Shown piece by piece: positions 1-13,513 of a DNA stretch of 15,175 nucleotides. The first letter of the stretch is position 1, and the number at the start of each line of letters is the position of its first letter. The stretch covers positions 1 through 15,175 of the forward strand of contig JACRGM010000034.1 of NCBI GenBank assembly GCA_016212345.1, read 5' to 3'. The notes under the pieces were generated by a model. That model saw nothing but the letters and a program-made list of their open reading frames with translations, ran no database searches and was not told the DNA's origin. This stretch comes from Nitrospinota bacterium. GTDB taxonomy: Bacteria > Nitrospinota > Nitrospinia > SZUA-224. The translations under genes and the position numbers were made by a program.

Positions 1-34
1 AGAATTCCAAACAAGGAAAGGAGGTGTATATAGA

Positions 35-241
35 ATGGCAGTAGAAAAGGCAATTGGTTCGTCCAGTCTGATTGAGGTTATTGACCGAATCCTGGATAAG
101 GGTGTTGTGGTTGATGCCTGGATAAGGGTCTCTTTAGTGGGTATTGAAATACTCGCCATAGAGGCCAGGGTAGTGGTGGCATCAGTAGAGACCTACCTGA
201 AGTACGCTGAGGCAATAGGTTTGACTGCAACAGCAGCCTAA
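35..241 (+). CDS. gvpA: Gas vesicle major structural protein GvpA (68 aa)
   Basis: Translation [64 protein letters not shown] is near-identical to the conserved GvpA core ([35 protein letters not shown]). GGAGGTG RBS lies 8 nt upstream of the ATG. Confidence 0.95.
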
Positions 242-333
242 GGATGGTCAACGACCAAGGAGGATTCTTGCCGAATTATCCTTATGCCTCGATATATGGA
301 GGGGAAAGAGTATAATTCGCCAAGAATTCCTTC

Positions 334-340
334 TTTTTTT
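334..340 (+). terminator. Oligo-T tract (T7) about 95 nt downstream of gvpA, preceded by a weak AGAA/TTCT mini-stem; possible archaeal-type or weak intrinsic terminator
   Basis: ttccttcttttttt is seen directly. No strong GC stem precedes it, so this is tentative. A run of Ts alone suffices for archaeal termination. Confidence 0.25.
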
Positions 341-354
341 AAAGAGGAAAATTT

Positions 355-447
355 AATCACCCCCACCTGGCCTCACCCCTCAATTTAGGTTATAGGTTAT
401 AGGGATTTGGGCAATTACCTAACACCTAACACCCAAAGGGGGTGGGT
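355..447. repeat. G/C-tract structured element: outer inverted repeat CACCCCCACC / GGGGGTGGGTG enclosing tandem heptamers (GGTTATA x2 and CCTAACA x2)
   Basis: Seen directly. C-runs at 362-371 pair with G-runs at 437-447. Similar C-run/G-run elements are at 7615-7705 and 9656-9732. Confidence 0.4.
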
Positions 448-494
448 GGCATGGACAAACTTGTTTGTCCGTGCCTTTGTGGTAGGGTGAAAGG
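444..494 (+). promoter_or_regulatory. Module B copy 1: GGGTGGCATGGACAAACTTGTTTGTCCGTGCCTTTGTGG, with the perfect 18-bp palindrome GGACAAAC-TT-GTTTGTCC at 453-470
   Basis: The perfect 8-2-8 palindrome is seen directly. The same module recurs at 3751-3811, 4408-4450 and 7698-7738. Candidate operator or transcription-factor site. Confidence 0.5.
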
Positions 495-510
495 TATTTT
501 TAGAGGAAAT

Positions 511-560
511 CCTCATACCGACCATAGTCGGCACAAAGTAGGGATGAAAATTTGATCACA
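511..560 (+). repeat. Module A copy 1: CCTCATACCGACCATAGTCGGCACAAAGTAGGGATGAAAATTTGATCACAC, with a CCGAC/GTCGG hairpin
   Basis: Related copies at 4371-4407, 7563-7619 and 9621-9662. Carries a GGAGG-like site followed by ATGAAAAT. Confidence 0.5.
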
Positions 561-570
561 CTCACTAGTC

Positions 571-620
571 CCCTCTCCCCTTTGGGGAGAGGGCAAGGGT
601 GAGGGGCTATTTTCAGAGGA
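571..620 (+). promoter_or_regulatory. Module C copy 1: 10-bp stem CCCTCTCCCC-TTT-GGGGAGAGGG, then a G-run tract GGGCAAGGGTGAGGGG, then the GGCTATTTTCAGAGGA leader
   Basis: Seen directly. Near-identical copy at 9831-9880 upstream of gvpG. Lies immediately upstream of the 626 ATG. Confidence 0.5.
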
Positions 621-625
621 AGGTA

Positions 626-1228
626 ATGCCTTTATCAGAAGATATGAAAGATATTGTCGAGGATATGATTTCTTCTTATGATATGAGGATCCAGAGTATC
701 GGGGCCATCTTTGATACTACTTACCAACTCCTCGAAGGTCTTCAGGATTCCTTTCTTGATACAAAACAAGAACAAGAAAGGATTAATGCAGAATTACGGG
801 AGAATCTTGCCAAAAACGGGTCTTTAAGGAGGAAGGATTTTGACAATATGATGCAGGGCATCCTTTTAACACAGGAGGAAAGGGAAAGGGAGGTAAGGAA
901 TCTGTTAAAGACCTACCTTAATGAACAAAAGAAGATGATACATGCCTTAAGAGAGAATCTGGCTAAGATCAAAGATGCTATTGCCAAAGGTGATATTCAA
1001 AGGGTCAAGGATTTCCGTGGCATGATTATTGAAAAAATATTTGCCAAACCAGAAGAAAGAAAGGAAGATCTTACCTCTAATCTAAAGAGGTTTCAAAGAG
1101 AACAAAAGGCCTTGTCAAAAAGACTTAAACGACTTTTAGCAAAAGGGGATGAACTTCAGATAAAGGATATCAAATTAATGCTCAAGGAATTCAAAAACAA
1201 ACATAATAAAGAGCGAATAGCTCACTAG
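626..1228 (+). CDS. Charged alpha-helical repeat protein, paralog 1 (N-terminal EDMISSYDMR motif; internal repeats LRENLAK...KDF..M). Candidate GvpC-like gas-vesicle shell-associated protein
   Basis: The tool ORF starts at GTG 599 inside module C. ATG at 626 with AGAGGAAGG RBS is preferred. Position right after gvpA, K/E/R-rich repeat structure, and paralogy with the next ORF. Not recognisably cyanobacterial GvpC. Confidence 0.75.
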   Translation: MPLSEDMKDIVEDMISSYDMRIQSIGAIFDTTYQLLEGLQDSFLDTKQEQERINAELRENLAKNGSLRRKDFDNMMQGILLTQEEREREVRNLLKTYLNEQKKMIHALRENLAKIKDAIAKGDIQRVKDFRGMIIEKIFAKPEERKEDLTSNLKRFQREQKALSKRLKRLLAKGDELQIKDIKLMLKEFKNKHNKERIAH

Positions 1229-1242
1229 GGAAGGAGGTAAAT

Positions 1243-2031
1243 ATGGGAATGGGAATAGCTACTGATATTAAAAGGCTTGGTGAAGACATTATTACTTCTT
1301 ATGATATGCGAGTAAAGGCCATGGGAGAGCGAGTAAAGGTGGTAGGAGAATTAGTAAGAGATACTCACAATATGGTTAAAGGGTTTCAGGCAAGGGATAA
1401 AGAGAGAAGGGATAATCTCAAGGCATATCTTACAAAGTCCGAAGAAGATAGACTTAAGGATTTCAAGATAACGATGGATGATCTTGTAAGGTGTAAAGAA
1501 GATAGAGGTAAGGATTTGAAAATAATGATAGCCGAGATTAAAAGATTTATAGTGGAGACGAGGCAGGCGAATGCAAAATTAATGAAACAGAGTAGAGAAG
1601 ATAGAAATAAGGAAGTAGCAGAACTCTTAGAAAGATTTGCAAAGGATCATGAGGCCATGGCATCTGAACTTGAGAAAGGCCTTGAGAAAGGAGAGAGAGA
1701 GAGACTTAGAGACTTCGGGTCAATGATGAGTAGTATTCAAAAATCTATTCAGGATGTAATTAACGATACCAAGGGATTAATTGAGGGAGTTCGGGAAAAA
1801 CTGAGAAATAAAAAATTCCTTGCCTTCTTAGAGGATTTCAAGACCGAAAGGGAAAAGATGGCTGCTAATTGGCAGAAACTCTCTGAGGAGATGTATAAGA
1901 GGAGAGGCGGAAAGATATCGAGGGTAAAGGTAGAAGCTGATGAAGAGGTAAAGACCGTTGAAGAGGTAGTAGAAGCAAGGTCAAACAAAAAGCTAAAGCT
2001 AAACAAAAAAAGAGGAGTGAAGAAGATATGA
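1243..2031 (+). CDS. Charged repeat protein, paralog 2 (GEDIITSYDMR motif; RLKDF/RLRDF repeats; Lys-rich C-terminal tail)
   Basis: GGAAGGAGGT RBS 6 nt upstream. N-terminus and the KDF..M repeats align with the previous ORF. Confidence 0.75.
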   Translation: MGMGIATDIKRLGEDIITSYDMRVKAMGERVKVVGELVRDTHNMVKGFQARDKERRDNLKAYLTKSEEDRLKDFKITMDDLVRCKEDRGKDLKIMIAEIKRFIVETRQANAKLMKQSREDRNKEVAELLERFAKDHEAMASELEKGLEKGERERLRDFGSMMSSIQKSIQDVINDTKGLIEGVREKLRNKKFLAFLEDFKTEREKMAANWQKLSEEMYKRRGGKISRVKVEADEEVKTVEEVVEARSNKKLKLNKKRGVKKI

Positions 2032-2969
2032 TAGAAGAGATGACAACAGTCCTTGAACCGAGTCCTCTACCAGATTTTGTAGAAACAAAGTATATTAAGG
2101 ATATTGTCAATAGGGCACTCTCTTATATTAAGGCTGGTTTTCCGGTCCATTTTAGAGGAGGCTCAGGTACTGGCAAGACAACACTCGCTATGCATATAGC
2201 AAGTAAGCTTAAAAAGCCTGTGGTAATGATTCACGGGGATGAAGAGCTCACAACCTCTGATCTAACAGGTGGAGAACATGGCTACAGATTTAGGAAGGTT
2301 GTTGATCGCTTTGTCTCTCGAGTTTTAAAGCTAGAAGAGGATATGGTCAAACATTGGGTTGACAATCGTTTAACTCTGGCCTGTAGATATGGATTTACCC
2401 TTATCTATGATGAATTCACCCGCTCAAAACCAGAGGCGAATAATATCCTTCTTTCTGTCTTCCAGGAGAAGATGATGGATTTGCCTATGGGAAGAGGTGG
2501 GGAGGAGTCATATTTAAAGGTTGATCCAGAGTTTACAGCTATCTTCACCAGCAACCCTGAGGAATATGCCGGGGTTCACAAGAGTCAGGATGCCTTAAGG
2601 GATAGGATGATAACTATGGATCTAGACTACTTTGACTATGATACAGAGGTAGCAATCACTCAGGGGAAATCCAAACTCTCTAGATCAGATGCTGAGATGA
2701 TAGTTAATATTGTTCGTGGTCTGAGAGAATCTGGAAAGTGTGAGTTTGCCCCAACTGTTCGGGGCTGCATTATGATTGCCAAGACACTTAAGACTCAAGG
2801 TATTACTCCTGCCAAATCCAACGGCGCCTTTATGGCGATCTGCCATGATATTCTATCCTCTGAAACGAGTCGAATTGGCTCTAAAACAAATCAAAATAGG
2901 GTCAAGAAGGTAGTTAAAGGGATTATCGAGAAGGAACTTGGCATGGGAAAGACGAGGAACTTGGCATGA
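2028..2969 (+). CDS. gvpN: Gas vesicle AAA+ ATPase GvpN
   Basis: Walker A FRGGSGTGKTTLAMHIA and Walker B-like LIYDEF, typical MoxR-like GvpN length of 313 aa. ATG overlaps the upstream stop (ATGA), suggesting translational coupling. Confidence 0.92.
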   Translation: MIEEMTTVLEPSPLPDFVETKYIKDIVNRALSYIKAGFPVHFRGGSGTGKTTLAMHIASKLKKPVVMIHGDEELTTSDLTGGEHGYRFRKVVDRFVSRVLKLEEDMVKHWVDNRLTLACRYGFTLIYDEFTRSKPEANNILLSVFQEKMMDLPMGRGGEESYLKVDPEFTAIFTSNPEEYAGVHKSQDALRDRMITMDLDYFDYDTEVAITQGKSKLSRSDAEMIVNIVRGLRESGKCEFAPTVRGCIMIAKTLKTQGITPAKSNGAFMAICHDILSSETSRIGSKTNQNRVKKVVKGIIEKELGMGKTRNLA

Positions 2970-2999
2970 GGAGAAAGAAGAAGTAGAAGGAGGACGACA

Positions 3000-3341
3000 A
3001 TGAGAGGAATTAATAACCTTAAAGGGCTCCATGCATTAAGGACTATGGATAGCACAAAGAGACGTTCCATACCGAGGATTCAAACCTCGATTTATTTAGA
3101 TATGTATATGTTGAATACAGAGAAGACAAGACTCTTAAGAGAAGACGAAAGACTAGGGGCAAGGAGATATGCTATTAGAAAGCGACTAGAAGAAATAGAG
3201 CAAGAGATGAATAAGTTACAAGAGGCTGAGACCGATGAGAGCACAGTTAAGGCCAGGACAAACAGAATCCTTTCAAAACATCCTTACATTCAGAAAGATG
3301 GGGGTAAAAAAGAGTGGAAGAAGATACCTTTAAATTATTAG
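3000..3341 (+). CDS. Hypothetical basic coiled-coil protein (113 aa) inside the gvp operon
   Basis: AGGAGG RBS 7 nt upstream. K/R/E-rich, no recognisable family. Position between gvpN and gvpJ. Confidence 0.6.
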   Translation: MRGINNLKGLHALRTMDSTKRRSIPRIQTSIYLDMYMLNTEKTRLLREDERLGARRYAIRKRLEEIEQEMNKLQEAETDESTVKARTNRILSKHPYIQKDGGKKEWKKIPLNY

Positions 3342-3372
3342 GGAAGAAGAATAAAGAGCAAGGGAGATTAAA

Positions 3373-3672
3373 ATGGCTGATCAAATAGTGCATGCGGTTC
3401 AGACAACAAACCTTGCGGATATCTTAGAGAGGGTCTTAGAGAAAGGTATAGTTATTGCTGGAGATATTAAGATTCAGATCGCTGATGTAGATCTACTTAA
3501 TATTAAGATCCGTCTTTTAATTTCCTCTGTGGATAAGGCTATGGAGATGGGGATAAATTGGTGGCAAAGCGATTCTTATCTTTCTTCAGAAAGAGAAGAG
3601 AGAGAATTAGAGAAAGAAAATAAAACCTTAAAGAAGAGATTAAGGCAGTTAGAGGCAAAGACAAAAATTTAA
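3373..3672 (+). CDS. gvpJ: Gas vesicle protein GvpJ (GvpA/J/M family)
   Basis: LADILERVLEKGIVIAGDIKIQIADVDLLNIKIRLLISSVDKAMEMGINWW matches the GvpJ pattern, including the WW. Charged C-terminal tail. Confidence 0.9.
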   Translation: MADQIVHAVQTTNLADILERVLEKGIVIAGDIKIQIADVDLLNIKIRLLISSVDKAMEMGINWWQSDSYLSSEREERELEKENKTLKKRLRQLEAKTKI

Positions 3673-3729
3673 AATTCAAAACATTCTGTATGCAATGCTT
3701 GTTTAGAATTTAGATATTAGGATTTAGAA

Positions 3730-3739
3730 TTTATATAAA
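3730..3739 (+). promoter_or_regulatory. TTTATATAAA: archaeal TATA-box-like element (or a bacterial -10-like AT box), 21 nt upstream of the module B palindrome
   Basis: Seen directly. The identical 10-mer is at 7684-7693 in the same relative context (gatttaRaatTTATATAAA). Confidence 0.35.
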
Positions 3740-3750
3740 GCTGGGTGGCT

Positions 3751-3831
3751 GGGTGGCATGGACAAACTTGTTTGTCCGTGCTTGTTTGTCCGTGCCTTTG
3801 TTGGAGGCTGAAAGGCTATTTTCAGAGGAAG
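3751..3831 (+). promoter_or_regulatory. Module B copy 2 (palindrome 3760-3777) with an internal duplication of the half-site TTGTTTGTCCGTGC (3768-3781 and 3782-3795), followed by the GGCTATTTTCAGAGGAA leader
   Basis: Seen directly. Immediately upstream of the Hsp20/gvpH-like ATG at 3836. Confidence 0.5.
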
Positions 3832-3835
3832 AAAT

Positions 3836-4384
3836 ATGGCAAAAGAAAAGAAAAAAAAGGAAGAAGAGAATTTAGATATTGATTTTGGTATAGGAAAGAT
3901 CAGTTTAGGAGGGTTATTTAAAGGTATAGAGAAATTAGTTGACCTGGCTGCAGATCTAAAAGAGGCTGGTGGTGAGATCAAGAAAGAAGGTGAAATAGAT
4001 CTAGGTCATCTTAAAGATGGTATGAAAGGGGTGTTTGGCTTTTCTATAAAGACAAGTATAGGGGGAAGGCCAATAGTTGAGTCATTTGGCAATATTAAGA
4101 AGAGCCCTAAAGGGCCTACAGTCAAGGAGGAGAGAGAGCCTATTACAGATATCTTTGACGAAAAAGAGGAGGTTCGTGTCTACGCTGAGATGCCAGGCGT
4201 GAATGAAGGGGATATAAGATTAGATCTAAAGGGGGATATATTAGATATCTCAGCCCAAAGCGGAGAGAGAAAGTATCATAAAGAGGTTTTACTTCCAGAA
4301 AAGGTAAATCCTGAGACCCTTACATCGAGTTATAAAAATGGTGTATTAGAGGTAAAGATGAAGAAACCCTCATGCCCATCATAG
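3836..4384 (+). CDS. Small heat-shock (Hsp20/alpha-crystallin domain) protein in the GvpH position, with a Gly/Lys-rich N-terminal region
   Basis: C-terminal VRVYAEMPGVNEGDIRLDLKGDILDISAQ...KYHKEVLLPEKVNPETLTSSYKNGVLEVKMKK fits the alpha-crystallin domain pattern (PGV..EDI, I.LP, NGVL.V). Confidence 0.85.
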   Translation: MAKEKKKKEEENLDIDFGIGKISLGGLFKGIEKLVDLAADLKEAGGEIKKEGEIDLGHLKDGMKGVFGFSIKTSIGGRPIVESFGNIKKSPKGPTVKEEREPITDIFDEKEEVRVYAEMPGVNEGDIRLDLKGDILDISAQSGERKYHKEVLLPEKVNPETLTSSYKNGVLEVKMKKPSCPS

Positions 4385-4407
4385 TCAGCACAAAGAGGGA
4401 TGAAAAT

Positions 4408-4473
4408 GGGTGGCATGGACAAACTTGTTTGTCCGTGTCTTTGTGGTAGGGTGAAAGGCTATTTTCTGAGGAA
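4408..4473 (+). promoter_or_regulatory. Module B copy 3 (palindrome 4417-4434) plus GGCTATTTTCTGAGGAA leader abutting the 4474 ATG. A partial module A (4371-4407) precedes it and overlaps the Hsp20 gene 3' end
   Basis: Seen directly. Confidence 0.5.
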
Positions 4474-5412
4474 ATGGGATTAACAGGATTAAGAGATGAT
4501 CCGCTAAAGCTGATATTATTTGGTGGCAAAGGGGGGGTAGGAAAGACAACCTGTGCCTCAAGTACAGCCCTTTACTGTTTATCATTGGATTTTAAGACAC
4601 TAATCTTTTCAACAGACCCAGCACATTCACTTTCTGATAGTTTGGGCCAGAAGATCGGCGATGAAATAAAAGAGGTACAAGGGATAAAAAATTTAAGTGC
4701 CCTTGAAATAAACTCAAAAAAGGCCTTTTCTAGATTTAAGATACAATATGAAGACCAAATAAGAAAGATATTAGATACCTCTACCTATTTAGATCAGGAA
4801 GATATCAACTCTATCTTTGCCTTACCCATCCCTGGTATAGATGAGATAATGGGATTTAAGACCATGGTTGACCTCATTGAGGAGGCAAGGTTTGACAAAT
4901 TCATTGGGGATACAGCACCTACGGGCCATGCCTTAAGACTTTTAACCTTACCTGAATTATTAGATGACTGGATTAAGGTGATGGCAAAGTTGAGGTGGAA
5001 ATATAGGTATATGGTAGAAAGATTTTCTGGGGGATATAAACCTGATGAAGGTGATGACTTTCTATTAAGTATGAAAAGGAGTGTAAAGAGGATTGAAGGT
5101 CTACTCCGGGATGATCAAAGGTGTGAATTTATCGTGGTAACAGTACCGGAGGATATGGCGATCTTAGAGACAGAGAGATTAATAGAAACATTAGGTAGAT
5201 ATGGGATAAAGGTAAGGCAGTTAGTGGTAAATAATGTATTAGAGTCAAATGGTTGTCCATTTTGTAGAGAAAGAAGAAAAGAACAGGAGAGATATATAGA
5301 TCGAATAAGGACAAGATTCAGTAATTTAAGGCTGACAATTACCTTTTTACAGCCTCGAGAGGTTAAAGGGGTAGAGGCCTTGAATAATTTTAAGGATATT
5401 TTATTTCAATAA
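4474..5412 (+). CDS. ArsA/Get3-family (anion-transporting / tail-anchored-protein targeting type) P-loop ATPase
   Basis: Deviant Walker [11 protein letters not shown], ArsA/Get3 signature [13 protein letters not shown], and a CPFC (CxxC) motif near the C-terminus as in Get3 zinc-binding dimers. Confidence 0.88.
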
Positions 5413-7586
5413 TGAAAAAAGAGAACACAATCTTAACCCTAAGAGTCAAGGAGGCCTTATCAAAGGATGTAGGTAGGGCAGTTGCAAGGATTGACCCTGA
5501 AGATATGAAGACCCTGGGATTAGAGGTTGGTGAGATTATAGAGATTGAAGGTAAAAGGAAGACCCCTGCTAAGGTGATGCCCTGTTATGCTGAAGATAGA
5601 GGGAAAGGGATTATCCAAATGGATGGGATATCCAGAGAAAATTCACAGGTTGGACTGGACGAAAAGGTAACGATCCATAGAATCGGTTATAAAGTCGCAA
5701 AGAAGATTATACTCTCTCCTTTGACTGTATCCAGTTTATCTACAAGAGACAAAGACACTAAATATATCGGCTCACTTATAGAGGGATTGCCTGTAACTAT
5801 TGGAGATAGGGTAAGGGCTACACTCTTTGGGTCAAGGTCTTGTGACTTTAAGGTACAGGATACTCTTCCTCCTGATAGTGTAGTCTTGATAAGCCCAACT
5901 ACCTTAATAGAGATGAAGACAAAAGGGTTAGAGGAGACTATACAAGCCAAGGTTTCATACGAAGATATCGGTGGACTTACCCCACAGATCCAAAGGATTA
6001 GGGAAACGATTGAACTACCATTAAGATATCCTCAAGTATTTGAGAGATTAGGGATCGATGCGCCCAAAGGTGTCTTTCTTTATGGACCACCTGGGACAGG
6101 AAAGACCTTGATTGCTCGGGCAGTGGCTAATGAAACAGATGCCTATTTTACCAGTATAAGTGGGCCTGAGATTATGGGTAAATTCTACGGTGAGAGCGAG
6201 GGACGACTACGTTCGATCTTTCAGGAGGCTCAGGCAAATGCCCCTGCTATTATATTTTTAGATGAGATTGAGGCTATTGCCCCAAAGAGGGAAGATATGG
6301 GTGCTGAAAAACAGGTTGAGCGCAGAGTAGTAGCCCAACTCTTGGCATTAATGGATGGATTAGAGTCCAGGGGTAATGTTATTGTCGTCGCTGCAACCAA
6401 CCTCCCTAATATAGTAGATCCAGCCCTGAGGAGGCCAGGCCGATTTGATAGAGAGATCGCTATCCCTATCCCTGACAAAAATGGGAGATTAGAGATATTA
6501 CAGATTCACACAAGGGGTATGCCTCTATCAGAGGATGTTAGCTTAGGAAAATTAGCCGAAATTACCCATGGATTTGTAGGTGCGGATTTAGAGGCACTGG
6601 CAAGGGAATCTGCGATGTCTGCTTTAAGAAAGATATTACCGAAGATCGACTTTGAGATGGCTGATATCCCTTATGAGACACTAATGAAGATAGAGGTGAC
6701 AATGGATAATTTCTTGGAGGCAATGAAAGAGGTTGAGCCGTCAGCAATACGGGAGGTCTTTGTTGAGGTCCCAGATGTCAAATGGGAAGATGTGGGGGGC
6801 TTAGAGGATATAAAAGAAGAGCTGAAAGAGGCGATAGAGTGGCCACTTAAGCATTCAGAGATCTTTAAGATGGCAAATACAAATCCACCTAAAGGTATAC
6901 TCCTTTATGGGGCCCCAGGGACAGGGAAGACATTCTTGGCCAAGGCAGTAGCTAATGAAAGTGGGGTAAACTTTATTTCGGTAAAAGGCCCTTCTCTTAT
7001 CTCAAAATATGTGGGAGAAAGTGAAAAGGCAATCCGTGAGGTATTTAAGACAGCAAAACATGCCTCACCTAGTATCTTATTTTTTGATGAAATAGATAGT
7101 CTTGTCCCTCGAAGGGGTTCAAGTAGCACAGACGCACATGTAACAGAGAGGGTGATAAGTCAATTCTTAACAGAGATGGATGGGATTGAGGAACTTAAAG
7201 GGGTAGTAGTCTTGGCCGCTACCAATAGATTGGATTTAGTCGATCCAGCATTATTGAGAAGTGGGAGATTTGACCTTTTGCTTGAGTTACATAAACCAGA
7301 TGATAAAACCAGACAAGAGATATTCAAGATACATACTAAAGATAAACCGCTTGCTAAGGATGTCAATTTAATAGACTTAGCAAAAGAGACTGAAGGTTGG
7401 GTGGGGTCGGATATTGAGTTTATCTGCCGAAGGGCCTCTATGTTGGCGATAAGGGAATTCATCAACCAGAGAGGGAAGGGCACAAGTCAAGGCACAGGGC
7501 TTAAGATTTCAAATAGGCATTTTGAAGAGGCGATTAAGTTGATCCACAACCAAAAAGGAGATCCTCATACCGAATACCGACCTTAG
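5412..7586 (+). CDS. CDC48/VAT/p97-type double-AAA unfoldase (N domain + D1 + D2)
   Basis: N-domain [33 protein letters not shown]1 has [17 protein letters not shown] and IIFLDEIE. D2 has [17 protein letters not shown] and [11 protein letters not shown] overlaps the upstream TAA (taATG). Last codons lie inside module A copy 3. Confidence 0.93.
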
Positions 7587-7619
7587 TCGGCACAAAGGAG
7601 GATGAAAATTGGATCACAC
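7563..7619 (+). repeat. Module A copy 3: CCTCATACCGAATACCGACCTTAGTCGGCACAAAGGAGGATGAAAATTGGATCACAC
   Basis: Overlaps the last about 8 codons and stop of the CDC48 gene. Confidence 0.5.
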
Positions 7620-7705
7620 CCCCACCCAGCCTCCCCCCTCAAGGGGATTGAGGGGGTATTTTTATTAGATATTAGGATTTAAAATTTATATAAAACTGGG
7701 GTGGC
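7620..7705. repeat. C-run/G-run structured element: hairpin CCCCCTCAA-GGGGA-TTGAGGGGG (7637-7659) nested between CCCCCACCC (7619-7629) and TGGGGTGG (7698-7705)
   Basis: Seen directly. Includes TTTATATAAA at 7684-7693. Confidence 0.4.
7684..7693 (+). promoter_or_regulatory. TTTATATAAA TATA-box-like element, 14 nt upstream of the module B palindrome
   Basis: Identical to 3730-3739. The flanking sequence gatttaaaatTTATATAAAactgggg parallels copy 2. Confidence 0.35.
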
Positions 7706-7738
7706 ATGGACAAACTTGTTTGTCCGTGCTTTTGTGGA
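7698..7738 (+). promoter_or_regulatory. Module B copy 4 (palindrome 7707-7724)
   Basis: The tool ORF start at 7706 (MDKLVCPC...) is simply the ATGGACAAACTTG of the repeat. Confidence 0.5.
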
Positions 7739-7759
7739 ATGGGTGTAGGGATCTACATT

Positions 7760-8860
7760 ATGGGTAAGCAAGGAAAATATATCTATGGAATTATAAATTC
7801 TAATGGAGAAGGGTCTTTCATGCCTTATAGAGCCACTGACTGTGAGGAGGTTTATCCTGTCAGAGATATGGAATCTGGCCAGGAATCGAGGATCTCTAAC
7901 ATGGTTTATACTATCCCTTATCGGGATATCTCAGCAGTAGTAAGTGACTCAGATATAGTTGATTATACCTATATGCATAGAGATGCCCTAGCAAGACTTT
8001 TAGTTAAACATCAAAAGGTTAATGAAAGGATTATGGGTTTAGGTCTTGCAATCATCCCTATGAGATTAGGGACATTTGCCGTTGATGAAACTGAGGTTAG
8101 GGATGTCTTAAATAAGGGATATAGTCTTATAAAAGAGATAGCTGAAGAGGTACAGGACAAGATAGAGATCGATATTGTTGCCACATGGGCTGATTTCCCT
8201 TCAGTACTTAAAGAAGTTGGAGAGGAGAAAGAGATTAGGGAATTTAAAGAAAGGGTATTAGATAGTCCTAATGGTGTATCTATAGACGATCAGATGAGGG
8301 TAGGGGTTATGGTTAAAGAGGCACTAGATGAAAAGAGAAAGAGATATGCCGAAGGGATACAAAATACCCTAAACCCTATTTATCAGGATAGTAAGATCCA
8401 TGAACTTATGGATGATAAGATGGTTATTAATGCAGCCTTTCTTATAGAAAGATCTAAACAAAGGTATCTTTATGGAAAGATAGAAGGGCTAAATGTTGAA
8501 TTTAGAGAGAGATTAAATTTTAGGTGTGTAGGTCCACTTCCTACCTATAGTTTTTATACACTTGAGGTAAAAAAGATGCGATTTGAGGAGATAGATTGGG
8601 CAAGGAAGAGATTTGGCCTAAATTACGCTACCAATAAAGATGAGATTAAGAAGACCTATTATCGCTTAGCCTCTTATCTTCACCCTGATAAAAATCCGAA
8701 TCTCCCTAATATAGAGAGGGAATTCGATGATGTAACTAAGGCCTATAAGATACTCATTGACTATTGCCTATCCTGCGAAAGGTCAGGTCAAGGAGTAGGT
8801 TATTCCTTCAATAAGGAGGAATTTAATAAGAATGTAATATTAGTTAAGATAAGGGAGTGA
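7760..8860 (+). CDS. GvpF/GvpL-family protein fused to a C-terminal J-domain (DnaJ-like, HPD at 8681-8689)
   Basis: GvpF/L hallmarks MVINAAFLIERSKQ and GPLPTYSFY. C-terminal EIKKTYYRLASYLHPDKNPNLPNIEREFDDVTKAYKIL is a J-domain with the HPD motif. Preferred start is ATG 7760 (MGKQGKYIYGIINS, matching the M..YIYG N-termini of the other GvpF paralogs). The start is uncertain; the tool start at 7706 lies in the repeat. Confidence 0.82.
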   Translation: MGKQGKYIYGIINSNGEGSFMPYRATDCEEVYPVRDMESGQESRISNMVYTIPYRDISAVVSDSDIVDYTYMHRDALARLLVKHQKVNERIMGLGLAIIPMRLGTFAVDETEVRDVLNKGYSLIKEIAEEVQDKIEIDIVATWADFPSVLKEVGEEKEIREFKERVLDSPNGVSIDDQMRVGVMVKEALDEKRKRYAEGIQNTLNPIYQDSKIHELMDDKMVINAAFLIERSKQRYLYGKIEGLNVEFRERLNFRCVGPLPTYSFYTLEVKKMRFEEIDWARKRFGLNYATNKDEIKKTYYRLASYLHPDKNPNLPNIEREFDDVTKAYKILIDYCLSCERSGQGVGYSFNKEEFNKNVILVKIRE

Positions 8861-8862
8861 TT

Positions 8863-9636
8863 ATGGAAAAGGAAGGAAGGTATATATATTGCATAATAGC
8901 TGATAGAGAACCTAAGACCTTTGGTAGACTGGGGATTGGTGGTAGGCAAGATGAATTGTATACAATCTGCCTTGACGATATCGCAATGGTAGTGAGCAAT
9001 TCTCCAATAATAGAATATTCAGTATCAAGAGAAAATCTACTTGCCCATGAAAGGGCAATTGAGGAGGTAATGAAGGAATATACTGTTTTACCAGTCCGGT
9101 TTGGTACAATTGTTGAGAATGAAGAGAAGATTAAAAAGATTTCAGAAAAGGAATATGACAGATTTAAGGGGTTACTTAATAAGTTTGAAGGCAAAAGAGA
9201 ACTAGGGCTGAAGGCAATATTTAAAGAGGATGCGATTTTTATGGATATCTTAGAGAGATATGAAGAGATAAGGGTCTTAAAAGAGAAGATTGCGAAGTTG
9301 CCTTCCAATGTCTCATATTATCAATCTATAGATATAGGAAGGTTGGTGGAGCAGGCATTAGAAAAGGAAAAGGGAAGATGTAAAGAAGAGATATGGGATA
9401 TCTTAATGCCCATGGCAGAGGATATAAAGATTAATCCCACCTACGGTGAAAGGATGATCATAAATGCTGCATTTTTAGTAAATAAAGATAAAGAAGGAGA
9501 GTTTGACCAGAATGTTCAGAAACTTGATGCAAGATATGGTGATAAGATCAAATTTAAATATATAGGGACAGTCCCGCCATTTAATTTTGTTAATTTGGTA
9601 ATTAATACAGAGGAAATCCTTATGCCGATAAAGTAG
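8863..9636 (+). CDS. GvpF/GvpL-family gas vesicle protein, paralog 2
   Basis: RYIYCII N-terminus, MIINAAFLVNKDKEGEFD, and GTVPPFNFVNL. ATG 8863 with AAGGGAG RBS (the tool GTG 8857 is less likely). Overlaps the upstream stop. Confidence 0.88.
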   Translation: MEKEGRYIYCIIADREPKTFGRLGIGGRQDELYTICLDDIAMVVSNSPIIEYSVSRENLLAHERAIEEVMKEYTVLPVRFGTIVENEEKIKKISEKEYDRFKGLLNKFEGKRELGLKAIFKEDAIFMDILERYEEIRVLKEKIAKLPSNVSYYQSIDIGRLVEQALEKEKGRCKEEIWDILMPMAEDIKINPTYGERMIINAAFLVNKDKEGEFDQNVQKLDARYGDKIKFKYIGTVPPFNFVNLVINTEEILMPIK

Positions 9637-9662
9637 GCACAAAGGAGCATGAAAATACACAC
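9621..9662 (+). repeat. Module A copy 4 (partial): tATGCCGATAAAGTAGGCACAAAGGAGCATGAAAATACACAC, overlapping the 3' end of the GvpF gene
   Basis: Aligns with 531-560 and 7585-7619. Confidence 0.4.
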
Positions 9663-9732
9663 CCCTTAATCCCCTCTTTTTAGAGGGGAAACTTTAGAAC
9701 TCCCCTCTATTAAGAGGGGTTGGGGGTGTGTT
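9656..9732. repeat. Three-stem element: outer stem ACACACCCC / GGGGTGTGT enclosing two near-identical hairpins, CCCCTCT-TTTT-AGAGGGG and CCCCTCT-ATTA-AGAGGGG
   Basis: Seen directly. Candidate structured RNA or REP-like element. Confidence 0.45.
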
Positions 9733-9774
9733 ATAAAGGTATTTTCGTATGAAAAACCATAAATAGATATGTAG

Positions 9775-9795
9775 GGGCAGGCCTTGTGCCTGCCC
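9775..9795. other. GC hairpin GGGCAGGC-CTTGT-GCCTGCCC (8-bp perfect stem) with no downstream T-run
   Basis: Seen directly. Not a canonical intrinsic terminator on either strand. Confidence 0.4.
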
Positions 9796-9830
9796 TTGAA
9801 AAAAGGTATTTTCAGAGGAACCCTCAGCTC

Positions 9831-9880
9831 CCTCTCCCCTTTGGGGAGAGGGTAAGGGTGAGGGGGTATTTTCAGAGGAA
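9831..9880 (+). promoter_or_regulatory. Module C copy 2 (hairpin + G-run tract + GGTATTTTCAGAGGAA leader) immediately upstream of gvpG. An additional GGTATTTTCAGAGGAA lies at 9805-9820
   Basis: Near-identical to 571-620. Confidence 0.5.
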
Positions 9881-9888
9881 TATTAAAG

Positions 9889-10128
9889 ATGTTTTTGATT
9901 GATAATATATTACTTGCCCCATTAAAAGGTTTGGCTTGGTTAGGTGATAAGATTAATGATGTGGCAGAAAGGGAATTCTCAGATGAGGGGCGGATAAAAG
10001 AAGAATTTATGGAATTGCAGCTATGGTTTGAAATGGATGAAATAAGTGAGGAGGAATATGAGAAACAGGAGAAGGTACTTTTAGCACGATTAGAGGCTAT
10101 TAGGAAGGCAAAGGAGGAGGGGATATAG
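9889..10128 (+). CDS. gvpG: Gas vesicle protein GvpG
   Basis: MFLIDNILLAPLKGLAWLGDKINDVAERE...ISEEEYEKQEKVLLARLEAI matches the GvpG N-terminal LxPxKGLxW motif and the C-terminal EE..E..LL.RL pattern. Confidence 0.9.
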   Translation: MFLIDNILLAPLKGLAWLGDKINDVAEREFSDEGRIKEEFMELQLWFEMDEISEEEYEKQEKVLLARLEAIRKAKEEGI

Positions 10129-10130
10129 AA

Positions 10131-10394
10131 ATGATAGAAAATATAGAGGAGGTCAGAGATGTGGTTACTGAGTTTTTAAAGAGGACCCTTAAAGTAGAGG
10201 ATGTAAAGGTGATTAAGGCTAGAAAGGTTGAGGATGGCTGGGAGACCGAGGTAGAGGCATATGAGGAGAGTTCCTTTATAAAGTCCCTTGGCCTTCCTAC
10301 AAGGGTACAAGATAAGAATATCTATGCTGTTAAATTAAATAGCAACATAGTTGAATCCTATGAGCGCAAGGAATCATCAAAGACAACCAAATGA
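10131..10394 (+). CDS. gvpO: GvpO-like gas vesicle protein (short, 87 aa)
   Basis: VEDGWETEVEAYEESSFIKSLGLPTRVQDKNIYAVKL...VESYER parallels the GvpO C-terminal core (DGW..VVEVVE, PDTQD, YEVTLD, Y.R) as I recall it. GGAGGAGGGG RBS. Confidence 0.7.
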   Translation: MIENIEEVRDVVTEFLKRTLKVEDVKVIKARKVEDGWETEVEAYEESSFIKSLGLPTRVQDKNIYAVKLNSNIVESYERKESSKTTK

Positions 10395-10409
10395 TGGCGG
10401 CTAATTTAG

Positions 10410-11198
10410 ATGATCAAAGAGTTGATATATCTCTATTGTGTTAGCCAGAAGGGACCGAATCTTAAAGGTTTGGATGGGGGTAATATCTATTATGTCCACC
10501 ATCATGGCATTTATGCTGTAGTTAGTAAGGTCTCAGAGGATGAATTTAGCGAGGAGAATCTGAAGAAGAATCTATCTGATATAGAGTGGATTAAGGCAAA
10601 GGTAAAGATACACGAAAATGTAATAGAAAGGATTATACCATATAGCTCTGTTATTCCCTTTAAGTTTGGGACCATATTCAATACCGAAGATAATCTAAAA
10701 GGAATGCTTGAGGAATATATAGAGAGATTTAATGATAATCTAATGTATCTAGATAGTAAAGAGGAATGGGGAGTAAAGATCTATTGCGATATAGATAGGC
10801 TAAAAGAGCGAATTATTAAAGAAGATGGTGATATCCTAAAGATCAAAGAGGAGATCAATCTCTCCTCCCCTGGCAAGGGATATTTTCTAAAAAAAAAGAG
10901 AGATGAATTGATAAGAGAAGGTGTAAATAAGAGAATCAATGAATATAGCCAGGTGAGTTTTGAGATATTAAAGGAGCTTAGTTCTGATGAGCAGATAAAT
11001 AAGTTGTTACCCAAAGAGGTAACTGAGAGGAAAGAGGAGATGGTCTTAAATTCGGCATTCTTAGTTGAAAAAGAGAGGGTACTAGAGTTTGTCCAAGCAG
11101 TAGATGGCCTTAACACAAGATATAATAATAATGGCCTTAATCTTGATTATACTGGCCCCTGGCCACCTTATAATTTTGTTGGTGAGTTAATGAGTTAA
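10410..11198 (+). CDS. GvpF/GvpL-family gas vesicle protein, paralog 3
   Basis: LIYLYCV N-terminus, MVLNSAFLVEKERVLEF, and GPWPPYNFVGEL. Confidence 0.88.
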   Translation: MIKELIYLYCVSQKGPNLKGLDGGNIYYVHHHGIYAVVSKVSEDEFSEENLKKNLSDIEWIKAKVKIHENVIERIIPYSSVIPFKFGTIFNTEDNLKGMLEEYIERFNDNLMYLDSKEEWGVKIYCDIDRLKERIIKEDGDILKIKEEINLSSPGKGYFLKKKRDELIREGVNKRINEYSQVSFEILKELSSDEQINKLLPKEVTERKEEMVLNSAFLVEKERVLEFVQAVDGLNTRYNNNGLNLDYTGPWPPYNFVGELMS

Positions 11199-11419
11199 TG
11201 ACTATGAAAGATGTTGTTACAAGATCAAAAGATGTAACCCTCTTAGAGGTCTTAGATAGGGTTTTAAATAAAGGTGTGGTTATCGTCGGAGATATAACAA
11301 TCTCTGTTGCTGATGTCGATCTTATATATCTAGGGTTAAGGGTATTGCTTAGTTCAGTGGAGACTATTACGCACTTAAGAGGTGCTCCGATTGAAGGCCC
11401 AATGCAGGAGCCGACTTGA
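11198..11419 (+). CDS. Small GvpA/J/M-family hydrophobic protein (GvpM/GvpS-like)
   Basis: TLLEVLDRVLNKGVVIVGDITISVADVDLIYLGLRVLLSSVETI matches the GvpA-family core. 73 aa. ATG overlaps the upstream TAA. Confidence 0.85.
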   Translation: MTMKDVVTRSKDVTLLEVLDRVLNKGVVIVGDITISVADVDLIYLGLRVLLSSVETITHLRGAPIEGPMQEPT

Positions 11420-12144
11420 TGAGGGTATATCTCTACGCTATAATAGATTCGAATGATAAGATAAGGAAAGCGATCAAAGGATTAGAAAAGGCCTCTGTTT
11501 ATAATATACCTTATCGTGATATAGGTTTAATTGTAAGCAAACTTAATGGACAGGTTCAAGATATAAGCATAGACCGTGCTATAGAACATGAGGGGGTTGT
11601 AGAAACCTTGATGGAAGATTTTACTCTCTTGCCTGTCAGATTCCTTACCCTCTTTGACAAAGAGGAGGATCTCCTTTCTGTGATAAAAGGGTATTACAGT
11701 GACTTCATAGAGAATTTAGACCGACTTCGTAATAAGATAGAGTTTGGTATAAAGGTGATCTGGCCTGGCAATACGATAAGAGAGCGTATAATGAATAACT
11801 ATCCTAAAGACGATTATCCAGCATCTATATCGGGCGATTCGCCTGGGAAGGATTTTATAAAAGCGAGGTTTAAAAGGTATAAAATAACCAAGGGATTCGA
11901 AGATGAGGCAGAGAGATGCATTGCAGTTATAGATAATCTTTTTAGTCTATCTGTCACTGAAAAGAGGCTTGAAAGACTTAAAAGTGAAAATCTCCTTCTG
12001 AATGCCTATTATCTGGTTGAGAAAGAAAGGCAAGATGATTTTAGACGATCATTCGAACAATTAAAGAGTAGCTTCAACGACTTTAAATATCTATTCAGCG
12101 GTCCCTGGCCTCCTTACAATTTTATCATACCTAAGGTCATTTAA
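11419..12144 (+). CDS. GvpF/GvpL-family gas vesicle protein, paralog 4
   Basis: RVYLYAII N-terminus, LLLNAYYLVEKERQDDF, and GPWPPYNFIIP. ATG 11419 with AGGAG 8 nt upstream (the tool TTG 11416 is less likely). Confidence 0.85.
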   Translation: MRVYLYAIIDSNDKIRKAIKGLEKASVYNIPYRDIGLIVSKLNGQVQDISIDRAIEHEGVVETLMEDFTLLPVRFLTLFDKEEDLLSVIKGYYSDFIENLDRLRNKIEFGIKVIWPGNTIRERIMNNYPKDDYPASISGDSPGKDFIKARFKRYKITKGFEDEAERCIAVIDNLFSLSVTEKRLERLKSENLLLNAYYLVEKERQDDFRRSFEQLKSSFNDFKYLFSGPWPPYNFIIPKVI

Positions 12145-12155
12145 AGAAAAGAAGG

Positions 12156-12494
12156 ATGATGCATAAAAGGATCGAAACAGATTCCCCTGGGGTATTTATT
12201 GAAGAGCTAAAGAAGATAGATGATACCCTTCCCAAAAGGATTGATGCTAATCCCCAAAATGTAGAAAAGGGTCTAGCTAAGTTAGTCCTAACACTTATAG
12301 AGTTAATTAGAAGACTTTTGGAAAGACAGGCTATGAGAAGGGTAGAATCAGGCTCTCTCACCGATGAAGAGGTAGAAAGGATTGGTGAGACCTTGATGAA
12401 ATTAGAAGATAAGATGCAAGAACTTAAAGGGATATTTGGTCTTAAAGATGAAGAATTGAATCTAAGTTTAGGTCCTTTAGGGGATCTGATGTAA
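12156..12494 (+). CDS. gvpK: Gas vesicle protein GvpK
   Basis: GLAKLVLTLIELIRRLLERQAMRRVESGSLTDEEVERIGETLMKLE matches the GvpK conserved core. Confidence 0.9.
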   Translation: MMHKRIETDSPGVFIEELKKIDDTLPKRIDANPQNVEKGLAKLVLTLIELIRRLLERQAMRRVESGSLTDEEVERIGETLMKLEDKMQELKGIFGLKDEELNLSLGPLGDLM

Positions 12495-12495
12495 T

Positions 12496-13185
12496 ATGAA
12501 GAGACTGATTTATGTCCCCATTATACATTCGAGTACAGATCTTGGCTCTATAGCAAAGGATGTAAGTAAGATAGGTATAACAGACCTAGGTAAAGAGCTC
12601 TGGGAAAGACATATAAAGACAGTTGAAGGCTTTTGGGATGTTATATCACATTATTTTGATTCTGTAGATGTATCTGGGGTAAAGATATACCAGGATGGAA
12701 TGGTAGCAGAGGGAGAAGTGGGGGAGAAGATAGTTGAAGAAGGGGTAAAATCAGGAAGCAAAAATTATGAGTTAGTCTCAAATCTCCTTAAAAGAGGGGC
12801 TCATTTAGTTAAGACAGAGGATTTTAATCTTGTTAAGGAGGAGCGCGATAGGTTACTTGCCATAATCCGGTCCCGATCTATTACTCATAGGTTGATTGCA
12901 TTTATAAAATATAAGCTAATCAAAAATAGGCTCTTAGATAAAAGGGATAATTTTATTGCCAAAAGGATAGAGGAGACCTTAAATCCCAGCGAAAGAGGTA
13001 TCCTTTTTATTGGCGCCTATCACAATATAAAGAAGAGGCTTCCAAAAGATATCCATATTAAAGAGATAAAGGATTCAGATAAGATAAAAGAATATCAAAG
13101 ATTACTCCCTTTTTATAATAGAAAAAGAGAACGTTTTGAGGAACTAGGTAGATATCTGCTATCAGAGATTAACGAGCCCATTTAA
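12496..13185 (+). CDS. Hypothetical 229-aa protein, last gene of the gvp operon (start 2 nt after the gvpK stop)
   Basis: Long ORF tightly coupled to gvpK, with codon usage like its neighbours. No family recognised. Confidence 0.65.
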   Translation: MKRLIYVPIIHSSTDLGSIAKDVSKIGITDLGKELWERHIKTVEGFWDVISHYFDSVDVSGVKIYQDGMVAEGEVGEKIVEEGVKSGSKNYELVSNLLKRGAHLVKTEDFNLVKEERDRLLAIIRSRSITHRLIAFIKYKLIKNRLLDKRDNFIAKRIEETLNPSERGILFIGAYHNIKKRLPKDIHIKEIKDSDKIKEYQRLLPFYNRKRERFEELGRYLLSEINEPI

Positions 13186-13235
13186 ACCTAAATCACATCC
13201 TTGCGACCGTAAATACTTCAACAGATCATTGCGTT

Positions 13236-13448
13236 TCATATAGCAATTTTTTCTTCCGCATATCCCATTCCTACTGCAGCAAGCGCGTCTTTACGGTTGA
13301 ATTCAAGGGCCTCTTTCAGGGTAACCCGAAGGTTTTCCATTAACTCTTCATGAGTACGTTCTTGACAGTTCACCCCTGGAATTTCCTCTATCCATCCAAT
13401 CCACCACTCTCCCTCTTGCTTTACTACTGCGGTATATTCTGTATTCAT
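13236..13448 (-). CDS. HicB-like / UPF0150-family small protein (type II antitoxin-like), with no adjacent HicA
   Basis: EYTAVVKQEGEWWIGWIEEIPGVNCQERTHEELMENLRVTLKEALEF matches the UPF0150/HicB N-terminal fold pattern (YTAVIEKDGDWYVAYVPELPGC..QG.T.EEA..NL.EAI). AAGGGGG RBS. Confidence 0.7.
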   Translation of the reverse strand: MNTEYTAVVKQEGEWWIGWIEEIPGVNCQERTHEELMENLRVTLKEALEFNRKDALAAVGMGYAEEKIAI

Positions 13449-13513
13449 AATTTGCCCCCTTTCAGATAATGTGATTATACCTTAAAATCCACCAGTTATT
13501 TTTGACCCAGCCC

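Follow-up and report, generated by a model that had tools for sequence, protein, structure and literature searches.

A Get3/ArsA-fold ATPase and a CDC48-type unfoldase encoded side by side in a widespread class of bacterial gas-vesicle clusters

How the very hydrophobic gas-vesicle protein GvpA stays soluble and enters a growing gas-filled shell is an open question, and in the model gas-vesicle (gvp) clusters so far studied the candidates for handling it are limited to GvpN, GvpF and a few small proteins. Here we analyse a gvp cluster from a Nitrospinota bacterium (GenBank assembly GCA_016212345.1, contig JACRGM010000034.1, positions 1 to 15,175 of the forward strand; the whole of this 15,175-nucleotide (nt) stretch is referred to as the window) in which a Get3/ArsA-like ATPase gene runs directly into a gene for a CDC48-type unfoldase. 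A reading made from the letters alone, hereafter the original prediction, had described the two as translationally coupled partners that could hold or recycle GvpA-family proteins during shell assembly. We find that the pair, preceded by a small heat-shock gene, keeps its order inside gvp clusters in more than ten bacterial phyla, and that the ATPase is a Get3/ArsA-fold protein distinct from arsenite pumps. Together with their neighbours, the two may form a protein-handling module for gas-vesicle assembly.

The ATPase–unfoldase pair within the gas-vesicle cluster

As judged from the open reading frame (ORF) list, Pfam and NCBIfam, one co-oriented gvp cluster fills almost the whole window. Its gvp genes are gvpA, gvpN, a gvpJ/S-like gene, four gvpF/L genes, gvpG and gvpK. 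Among them lie the pair and its immediate partners, given here with the motifs that matter below.

3836-4384, + strand: hsp20, small heat-shock protein with an alpha-crystallin domain, first gene of the conserved trio (Pfam HSP20, E = 2.6e-9)
4474-5412, + strand: ArsA/Get3-like ATPase of the gvp-linked clade, single domain, 312 amino acids (aa)
4525-4551 (residues 18-26), + strand: deviant Walker A motif (P-loop) GKGGVGKTT, unchanged across every aligned homologue and the Get3/ArsA references
4909-4929 (residues 146-152), + strand: switch II, DTAPTGH, located by alignment
5254-5265 (residues 261-264), + strand: CPFC, aligned with the zinc-binding CxxC of Get3
5410-5414, + strand: TAATG stop/start overlap of the ATPase gene and cdc48 (TAA 5410-5412, ATG 5412-5414; 1-nt overlap)
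5412-7586, + strand: cdc48, CDC48/VAT-type double-ring AAA+ unfoldase, 724 aa
6177-6200, + strand: D1 pore loop GKFYGESE, aromatic, invariant in 30 of 30 gvp-linked CDC48s (VAT counterpart SKYYGQSE)
7002-7025, + strand: D2 pore loop SKYVGESE, conserved (VAT counterpart SKWVGESE)
7760-8860, + strand: GvpF/L::DnaJ fusion (Pfam GvpL_GvpF, 3.4e-48; DnaJ, 2.3e-12)

Both ORFs of the pair, with their signatures and the CPFC motif, are present exactly as the original prediction described them; the TAATG at their junction is there in the sequence, and the rest of the window bears out the placement of the pair inside a gvp operon. The Hsp20 protein just passes the Pfam family ArsA_HSP20 (PF17886; 23.6 bits, cut-off 22.5) and scores 149.8 bits against the NCBIfam Hsp20 model NF041800 (cut-off 140). 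The GvpF/L::DnaJ gene is likely to start at ATG 7760, because the listed start at 7706 falls inside a repeat, and the HPD motif of its C-terminal J domain is intact.

A predicted Get3/ArsA-fold ATPase with a conserved CxxC

Pfam, NCBIfam and PDB matches all agree with the assignment of the ATPase to the Get3/ArsA family. Pfam ArsA_ATPase is matched in one stretch (E = 3.3e-79) that spans model positions 2-304 of 305, and NCBIfam TIGR00345 (GET3_arsA_TRC40) is matched at 266.8 bits, with a cut-off of 135. The top PDB match is Chlamydomonas ARSA1 (5zme), whose 265 bits are summed across two halves; the best single-domain matches are archaeal Get3 proteins (3ug6, 186 bits; 3zq6, 183 bits), then fungal Get3, while E. 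coli ArsA reaches 145 bits. The start at 4474 appears to be correct, since the N-terminal MxLTGL is kept in homologues.

The P-loop and both switches (I and II) align with those of Get3 from M. jannaschii, M. thermautotrophicus, S. pombe and A. fumigatus, and within the gvp-linked family they do not vary. The CPFC motif falls in the CxxC column of the same four solved proteins (CDFC, CEFC, CPQC and CEQC), so that the resemblance noted in the original prediction holds column for column. CxFC is found in 22 of 22 gvp-linked single-domain homologues aligned, as well as in both halves of the tandem relatives described below; the motif is missing from ArsA, Chlamydomonas (Cr) ARSA1 and the non-gvp paralogues. 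In Get3 the CxxC is the signature Zn2+ site at the dimer interface (PMC10248533), and the CPFC that aligns with it is a putative zinc site of the same kind.

In the ATPase, 64 aa separate switch II from the following strand, as against 68-73 aa in Get3 and 37-50 aa in ArsA halves. In the alignment, a family-specific helix after switch II occupies the position of the Get3 motif/TRC40 insert; ArsA has no such insert. The insert of the ATPase is aromatic and basic in composition, with 7-9 Phe, Trp or Tyr, 13-14 Lys or Arg and 3-5 Met residues.

Not an arsenite pump, and placed in a clade of its own

A role as an arsenite pump is excluded, as far as sequence can show, by the single domain, the absent arsenic-binding cysteines, the lack of ars neighbours and a score far under the ArsA equivalog cut-off. 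As the original prediction had seen, only one ArsA half is present: a single ArsA_ATPase stretch is followed by cdc48 as the next gene. The protein scores 129 bits against the ArsA equivalog model TIGR04291 (cut-off 650) and 174 bits against NF041417 (cut-off 800), and it is 25-29% identical to plasmid ArsA proteins from arsRDABC operons. We take Cys113, Cys172 and Cys422 to be the As(III)/Sb(III)-binding cysteines of E. coli ArsA; in the alignment, the gvp-linked proteins have no Cys at the GAC, ASC and SPC cysteine columns of Klebsiella ArsA, which comes from an arsRDABC operon. No arsB, acr3, arsR or arsD gene occurs in the window or in the 20-kb flanks of the relatives whose gene tables were examined (L001-L006).

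A neighbour-joining tree with 200 bootstraps, a simple method applied to a small reference set, unites the gvp single-domain proteins with the halves of the tandem relatives and a small number of single-domain paralogues that are not gvp-linked, in one bacterial group (69% bootstrap), apart from archaeal and fungal Get3 (58%) and from the ArsA halves. The original prediction had asked whether the protein would fall with ArsA or with Get3, and had named a grouping with arsenite-pump ArsA beside ars genes as the outcome that would undo it. That outcome was found neither in the tree nor in the neighbourhood; the ATPase lies outside the ArsA halves, but it also lies outside the clade of archaeal and eukaryotic Get3 and belongs to a gvp-type clade of bacteria. 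Because the resolution of the tree is modest, we describe the protein as a Get3/ArsA-fold member of a distinct gvp-type clade rather than as a Get3 orthologue.

The closest non-gvp paralogues are about 50% identical to the ATPase (L040, 8595-10846; also L041-L043 and L046; L045, 9577-10903). They keep the post-switch II helix and have no CxxC. In Chloroherpetonaceae, such a gene stands directly after the genes for an SbtA-type bicarbonate transporter and a P-II protein. ArsA-like matches at or below 52% identity (L040-L046) were taken as a different paralogue, being without CxxC and located beside sbtA and P-II genes, and were left out of the synteny count.

A predicted two-ring threading unfoldase

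The product of cdc48 is, as originally proposed, a CDC48 homologue; it is full length and has all catalytic motifs. Pfam finds an N domain (double-psi barrel plus beta-clam; CDC48_N, 1e-27, and CDC48_2, 5e-8), after which come two AAA domains (1e-91) and two AAA_lid_3 domains, and TIGR01243 is matched at 946 bits, with a cut-off of 802.65. Among solved structures, Thermoplasma VAT (5g4f) is the closest match, at 754 bits with query residues 5-683 aligned, and p97 ranks behind it. Across 30 gvp-linked CDC48s, the Walker A/B pairs and arginine-finger regions are kept in both D1 and D2. This conservation of Walker motifs, arginine fingers and aromatic pore loops suggests an unfoldase that threads polypeptides and has both rings active.

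Archaeal Cdc48 carries an HbYX motif at its C-terminus for docking on the 20S proteasome. Neither HbYX nor any other conserved protease-docking motif is found at the C-termini of the gvp-linked CDC48s, which are variable and mostly basic, and there is therefore no sign of docking on a 20S proteasome. In the window, the C-terminus (...TEYRP) is encoded by a DNA repeat.

Conservation of the order hsp20, ATPase gene, cdc48

A cut-off of E <= 1e-20 gives 7,859 relatives of the ATPase, of which the 120 best are 73-80% identical to it. Synteny was assessed from gene tables around three relatives and from 41 genome loci, onto each of which the window proteins were mapped by tblastn. Every locus with an ATPase at least 56% identical lies within a gvp cluster. 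Among the 37 distinct loci with downstream sequence, 36 keep the order hsp20, ATPase gene, cdc48 inside the gvp cluster, and hsp20 precedes the ATPase gene in nearly all loci that have upstream sequence. The survey of related gvp clusters suggested in the original prediction thus finds the pair in its relatives, rather than absent from them, and insertion of the pair by chance is excluded by the order kept in 36 of 37 loci.

These loci span more than ten bacterial phyla. Host labels include Omnitrophota, Nitrospirota, Nitrospinota, Planctomycetota (Pirellulales, Sedimentisphaerales), Elusimicrobiota and Latescibacteria, together with Syntrophaceae and other 'delta' (Desulfobacterota-type) lineages, Thermodesulfobacteriota, Thermodesulfovibrionales, Lentisphaerae/Victivallis and Chlorobium/Prosthecochloris (Chlorobi).

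The junction between the ATPase gene and cdc48 is tight in many of them. The spacing is -1 or -4 nt in 16 loci, +2 to +3 nt in 6, 14-63 nt in about 11 and more than 100 nt in 4, so that about 60% of loci have a junction of at most 3 nt; the gap between hsp20 and the ATPase gene is 0-1 nt in about 15 loci. Stop/start overlaps are common within the window's cluster (others lie at 2028, 8857, 11198 and 11416), and the TAATG overlap taken alone is therefore ordinary operon packing. It is informative because the tight junction is conserved in other genomes, and translational coupling of the ATPase gene and cdc48 may reasonably be inferred across the family. The stoichiometric co-expression that the original prediction read into the overlap does not follow from it, as a stop/start overlap does not imply a 1:1 ratio.

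A gene for a GvpF::J-domain protein comes after cdc48 in most lineages; the Chlorobi loci are an exception. Functionally, the unit extends beyond the pair, with hsp20 upstream and the GvpF::J-domain fusion downstream.

Tandem-domain relatives in other gas-vesicle clusters

In an exhaustive search, the nearest representatives of clusters at 50% identity are mostly tandem two-domain proteins of 640-690 aa that are 35-44% identical to the ATPase (P0121-P0128), with CxxC in both halves. Four of the five examined lie in gvp clusters (L050, L051, L052 and L054), and the contig of the fifth is too short for judging. The layouts differ. In L052, cdc48 is followed by gvpF::DnaJ, and the tandem ArsA gene comes after gvpG; L051 has a tandem ArsA, a CDC48 and two Hsp20-like ORFs; and in L054 an Hsp20 gene precedes the series tandem ArsA, GvpF::DnaJ, Hsp70 (12942-14651) and CDC48. 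The recurrence of an ArsA-fold ATPase, CDC48, a small heat-shock protein (sHsp), a J domain and even Hsp70 in differently laid-out gvp clusters is the strongest argument for a shared vesicle-related role in protein handling.

The remainder of the cluster

The other features of the window are as follows.

35-241: gvpA
599-1228: coiled-coil ORF, first of two
1243-2031: coiled-coil ORF, second of two
2028-2969: gvpN (TIGR02640, 341 bits)
3000-3341: small ORF
3373-3672: GvpA-family ORF
8857-9636: gvpF/L
9889-10128: gvpG
10131-10394: ORF
10410-11198: gvpF/L
11198-11419: GvpA-family ORF
11416-12144: gvpF/L
12156-12494: gvpK
12496-13185, + strand: orf229, TraB/ChaN/TIKI-like fold
13236-13448, - strand: UPF0150/HicB-like small ORF, outside the cluster
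13514-14803, - strand: DUF4143/AAA_14 ATPase, outside the cluster

The last two, on the opposite strand, are unrelated to the gvp genes. The two coiled-coil ORFs have no family match; their N-termini are alike (repeat D12), and a 54-nt tandem repeat occurs among them (internal repeat 1427-1534). Their position after gvpA suggests GvpC-like outer-surface proteins. In relatives, a response regulator of the sigma-54-dependent type is encoded just upstream of gvpA, along with a PAS histidine kinase and response regulators of a single domain (L001, 497-4571; L003 and L004, 1314-4599; L005, 1-3270). The window's contig begins at gvpA, so this region falls outside it.

Repeats and spacers around the pair

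The ATPase gene is preceded by an 89-nt spacer (4385-4473, + strand) made of repeat modules D1, D2 and D4, with a 12-bp hairpin at 4412-4439, then TTTGTGG, and a AGGCTATTTTCTGAGGAA leader just 5' of the ATG. Its predicted RNA fold is -21.2 kcal/mol (z -2.5). Within the spacer lies one copy (4407-4473) of a 59-66-nt element that also occurs at 443-508, 3750-3830 and 7698-7756; the copies are 80-93% identical, save that at 3750, which has an internal 14-nt duplication. The element opens with a perfect 12-bp hairpin, GGCATGGACAAAC / GTTTGTCCGTGCC, which folds better than shuffled sequences (z -2.4 to -4.8), and it closes with a AGGCTATTTTCAGAGGAA leader just 5' of start codons. On account of its TTTGTGG tail, it was flagged as terminator-like.

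The original prediction had tied the pair to the gvp genes through this element, as a shared regulatory scheme. The repeat itself is real, but it is a repeat specific to this genome: it was not found in any of 51 other loci, no Rfam family matches it, and a conserved regulatory leader is thereby rejected. Since the element is absent elsewhere and hsp20 abuts the ATPase gene in many relatives, it is no evidence for a conserved regulatory scheme. A sigma-54 promoter within it was likewise rejected, as the pattern TGGCAC-N5-TTGCW with at most 2 mismatches gave 4 matches against 3.4 expected, none of them at the repeat. The element might attenuate read-through, or it might make a processed 5' end more stable.

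A second DNA repeat (..GAAATCCTCATACCGA..TAG) supplies the stop and the final few codons of hsp20, of cdc48 and of the gvpF/L gene at 8857-9636, which are unrelated to one another, and the C-termini of these three proteins are therefore repeat-derived. Its copies lie at 502-550, 4359-4407, 7554-7609 and 9609-9656, including an orphan copy without a gene, and each is followed by AGTCGGCACAAAGGAGGATGAAAAT; the repeat could be a MITE-like element or a recombination cassette. A 36-nt module (3710-3745 and 7665-7700, 94% identical) reads as a -35 TTAGAT, an 18-nt spacer and a -10 TATAAA. It stands directly 5' of the two hairpin-leader copies before hsp20 and gvpF::DnaJ; there is none before the copy at the ATPase gene. 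A 51-nt repeat (571-621 and 9830-9880, 96% identical) carries the hairpin CCCTCTCCCC-TTT-GGGGAGAGGG; its two copies are located upstream of, respectively, the first coiled-coil ORF and gvpG.

Proposed role and alternatives

We propose that the pair is the core of a dedicated protein-handling (proteostasis) module for gas-vesicle assembly, made up of hsp20, the Get3/ArsA-fold ATPase, CDC48 and the GvpF::J-domain protein. The proposal is drawn from gene context only, and we consider its chances of being correct about even. We count in its favour that the added genes all come from chaperone or unfoldase families by Pfam and NCBIfam. When chaperones are absent, GvpA/J/M end up in inclusion bodies; GvpF is able to bind GvpA as a monomer, and GvpM is kept from aggregating by the Hsp20-like GvpH (PMC9501494). 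Within the window's cluster, the most hydrophobic stretches belong to GvpA and the GvpS-like protein.

The module might operate as follows. The sHsp and a zinc-linked dimer of the Get3-like ATPase would act as holdases that keep hydrophobic GvpA-family monomers (GvpA, GvpJ/S-like) soluble. ATP binding and hydrolysis would open and close the helical client-binding subdomain, and the monomers would be passed to a GvpF/L-G-K assembly complex. The CDC48 hexamer would thread polypeptides through its aromatic pore loops, so that off-pathway Gvp aggregates or mis-assembled pieces of shell could be dissolved and their subunits reused, while the J domain on GvpF would recruit Hsp70 to the same client. 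In this scheme we infer the client, the direction of hand-over and any physical contact between the two ATPases.

Several observations weigh against such a module. To our knowledge, the best-studied gas-vesicle clusters (Halobacterium, Anabaena, B. megaterium and Serratia) work without CDC48, and the module is therefore not intrinsically required. One locus, L037, is the sole exception to the conserved order: its ATPase gene is followed directly by gvpF::DnaJ, with no cdc48 between. Tree support for the bacterial gvp-type clade is moderate, at 69%. The helical subdomain of the ATPase is aromatic and basic, whereas its Get3 counterpart is Met-rich, and the AlphaFold (AF2) model of the ATPase, built from a shallow alignment in which all sequences are at least 73% identical, has a pLDDT of 64, too poor for inspection of a groove. 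Finally, no tail-anchored or transmembrane-like client is found among the window proteins, where the maximum 19-residue Kyte-Doolittle hydropathy (KD19) is 1.93, in GvpA.

The main rival is a role of CDC48 in turnover or disassembly, which we regard as unlikely. CDC48 would extract GvpA or strip the GvpC-like coiled-coil proteins of the outer surface from finished or collapsed vesicles, perhaps with orf229 as a hydrolase, and the Get3-like ATPase and Hsp20 would receive the subunits, so that buoyancy is lowered or subunits are recycled. As segregases, CDC48/VAT enzymes have pore loops for threading, and the protein described here keeps both aromatic loops intact; an engineered ClpXP can take GvpC off vesicles (PMC9501494). 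The gene orf229 adjoins cdc48 in L017 and is fused to it in L051, and its product was matched by fold comparison to a superfamily that includes proteases and esterases; the fold comparison alone was informative, a profile search against PDB sequences having given nothing significant. However, the CDC48::orf229 fusion is a single case. Among homologues of the domain fused in L051, the nearest 120 are all stand-alone proteins of about 194 aa, so fusion as a general rule is rejected, and a Met retained at the junction means that the L051 fusion could be a lost stop codon. A Methanothrix orf229-type gene lies in a gvp cluster with no CDC48 nearby, and orf229 is a possible partner of CDC48 by a weak link. 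The CDC48 C-termini also have no conserved HbYX or other protease-docking motif, and the module sits amid assembly genes in the same orientation.

A more far-reaching reading, which we think rather improbable, is that the Get3-fold ATPase and CDC48, perhaps with orf229, together use ATP to insert subunits into a lipid-free protein shell and to extract them from it: the dimer would deliver GvpA-family subunits and CDC48 would pull them out. If so, the growing gas vesicle would be the first non-membrane 'target' of a Get3-type factor, and extraction by CDC48 would put vesicle disassembly, and with it buoyancy, under the cell's enzymatic control.

The remaining readings are much less likely than turnover. 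Regulatory proteolysis or remodelling, in which the ATPases act on a regulator of gvp expression rather than on shell proteins, by analogy with the lowering of GvpE levels by haloarchaeal GvpD, seems to us very unlikely. A sigma-54 activator, a PAS kinase and response regulators do lie just upstream of gvpA in relatives, and haloarchaeal gvp clusters contain P-loop NTPases with regulatory roles (PMC9501494), but the conserved partners of the pair are Hsp20 and GvpF::J-domain rather than regulators, and the module also occurs in clusters with other regulators, such as the PadR/HTH types of L051 and L054. Still harder to accept is a positioning ATPase, in which a deviant-Walker-A (SIMIBI) dimer spaces or tethers gas vesicles in the manner of ParA/MinD types and CDC48 is unrelated to the role. 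The ATPase has weak Pfam matches to ParA, CbiA and AAA_31; these ParA-type matches are confined to the P-loop region and lie near or below cut-offs, whereas the full-length match is to ArsA/Get3 (267 bits) with a helical subdomain and CxxC, and a positioning role would not account for the conservation of the tight link to Hsp20 and CDC48. An ordinary arsenite-efflux ArsA, as the Pfam family name and the source annotations ('arsenite-transporting ATPase') would have it, is scarcely credible, and so is an operon in which unrelated genes were inserted by chance, in view of the low identity to plasmid ArsA, the low equivalog score, the single domain without cysteines at the Cys113/172/422 columns, the lack of ars genes in the window or examined flanks, and the synteny in 36 of 37 loci.

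Comparison with known systems

A link between ArsA, hsp20 and gvp genes is already known. Castillo and Saier (2010; PMC2963123) described ArsA homologues with hsp20 in gvp clusters without ars genes (their clusters 4 and 6), in Polaribacter, Pelodictyon, Geobacter uraniireducens, Anabaena/Nostoc and an acidobacterium, from phyla that include Chlorobi and deltaproteobacteria, and they suggested that the ATPase powers a step in the biogenesis of vesicles. The window ATPase resembles those proteins in its setting, a gvp cluster with hsp20 and without ars genes. Unlike them (two-domain proteins of about 637 aa), it is a single domain of 312 aa that would need to homodimerise. That paper contains no mention of CDC48, a Get3-type CxxC or a J-domain fusion. 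Our literature search returned no paper linking gas vesicles with Get3, and none on a CDC48, J-domain or Hsp70 set in gvp clusters, although its coverage was incomplete and absence from it is not proof. What we did not find described in the literature is the single-domain, CxxC-bearing, apparently Get3-like form, its conserved coupling to CDC48 as read from gene order, and the wider set of chaperone genes.

These features matter in three respects. Because a widespread class of clusters has recruited well-understood machines (sHsp, Get3 fold, CDC48 and an Hsp70-recruiting J domain), the question of how GvpA is handled can be tested with standard tools. Proteotoxic stress is reported when foreign hosts express gas vesicles (PMC12848028), and parts of the module might relieve it. 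For the Get3/ArsA field, the analysis defines a bacterial clade that bears the CxxC and whose context suggests a client that is neither arsenite nor a tail-anchored membrane protein.

With archaeal Get3 (3ug6, 3zq6), the ATPase shares the P-loop, both switches (I and II), a C-terminal A-loop-like segment, the CxxC column and an insert after switch II. It differs from Get3/TRC40 in lying outside the archaeal and fungal group and in an insert that is about 5-10 residues shorter and aromatic/basic rather than Met-rich. Its context is a lipid-free protein organelle, and no tail-anchored client or receptor is evident in the window. A further parallel is Get3d, in which a Get3 fold is fused to the alpha-crystallin domain PF17886 (PMC10248533). 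Here, too, a Get3-like ATPase is coupled to an alpha-crystallin unit, but as a neighbouring and often abutting gene upstream rather than as a C-terminal fusion; unlike Get3d and ARSA1, which have no CxxC, the gvp-linked family keeps the motif invariantly, and it has no link to photosynthesis.

The unfoldase shares with archaeal VAT/CDC48 and p97 the N-D1-D2 architecture, Walker A/B motifs and arginine fingers, with aromatic pore loops in both rings as in VAT. It departs from them in being bacterial, in belonging to an organelle operon, in its variable C-terminus without HbYX and in its pairing with a Get3-like ATPase. The closest conceptual counterpart of the module as a whole is found in haloarchaeal GvpH and GvpF, accessory proteins that keep the GvpA/J/M family soluble (PMC9501494); the window Hsp20 has a faint match to GvpH, at 17 bits against a cut-off of 22. 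Unlike the haloarchaeal system, the clusters described here have added general-purpose ATP-driven machines to the operon, namely a Get3 fold, CDC48 and, through the J domain, the recruitment of Hsp70.

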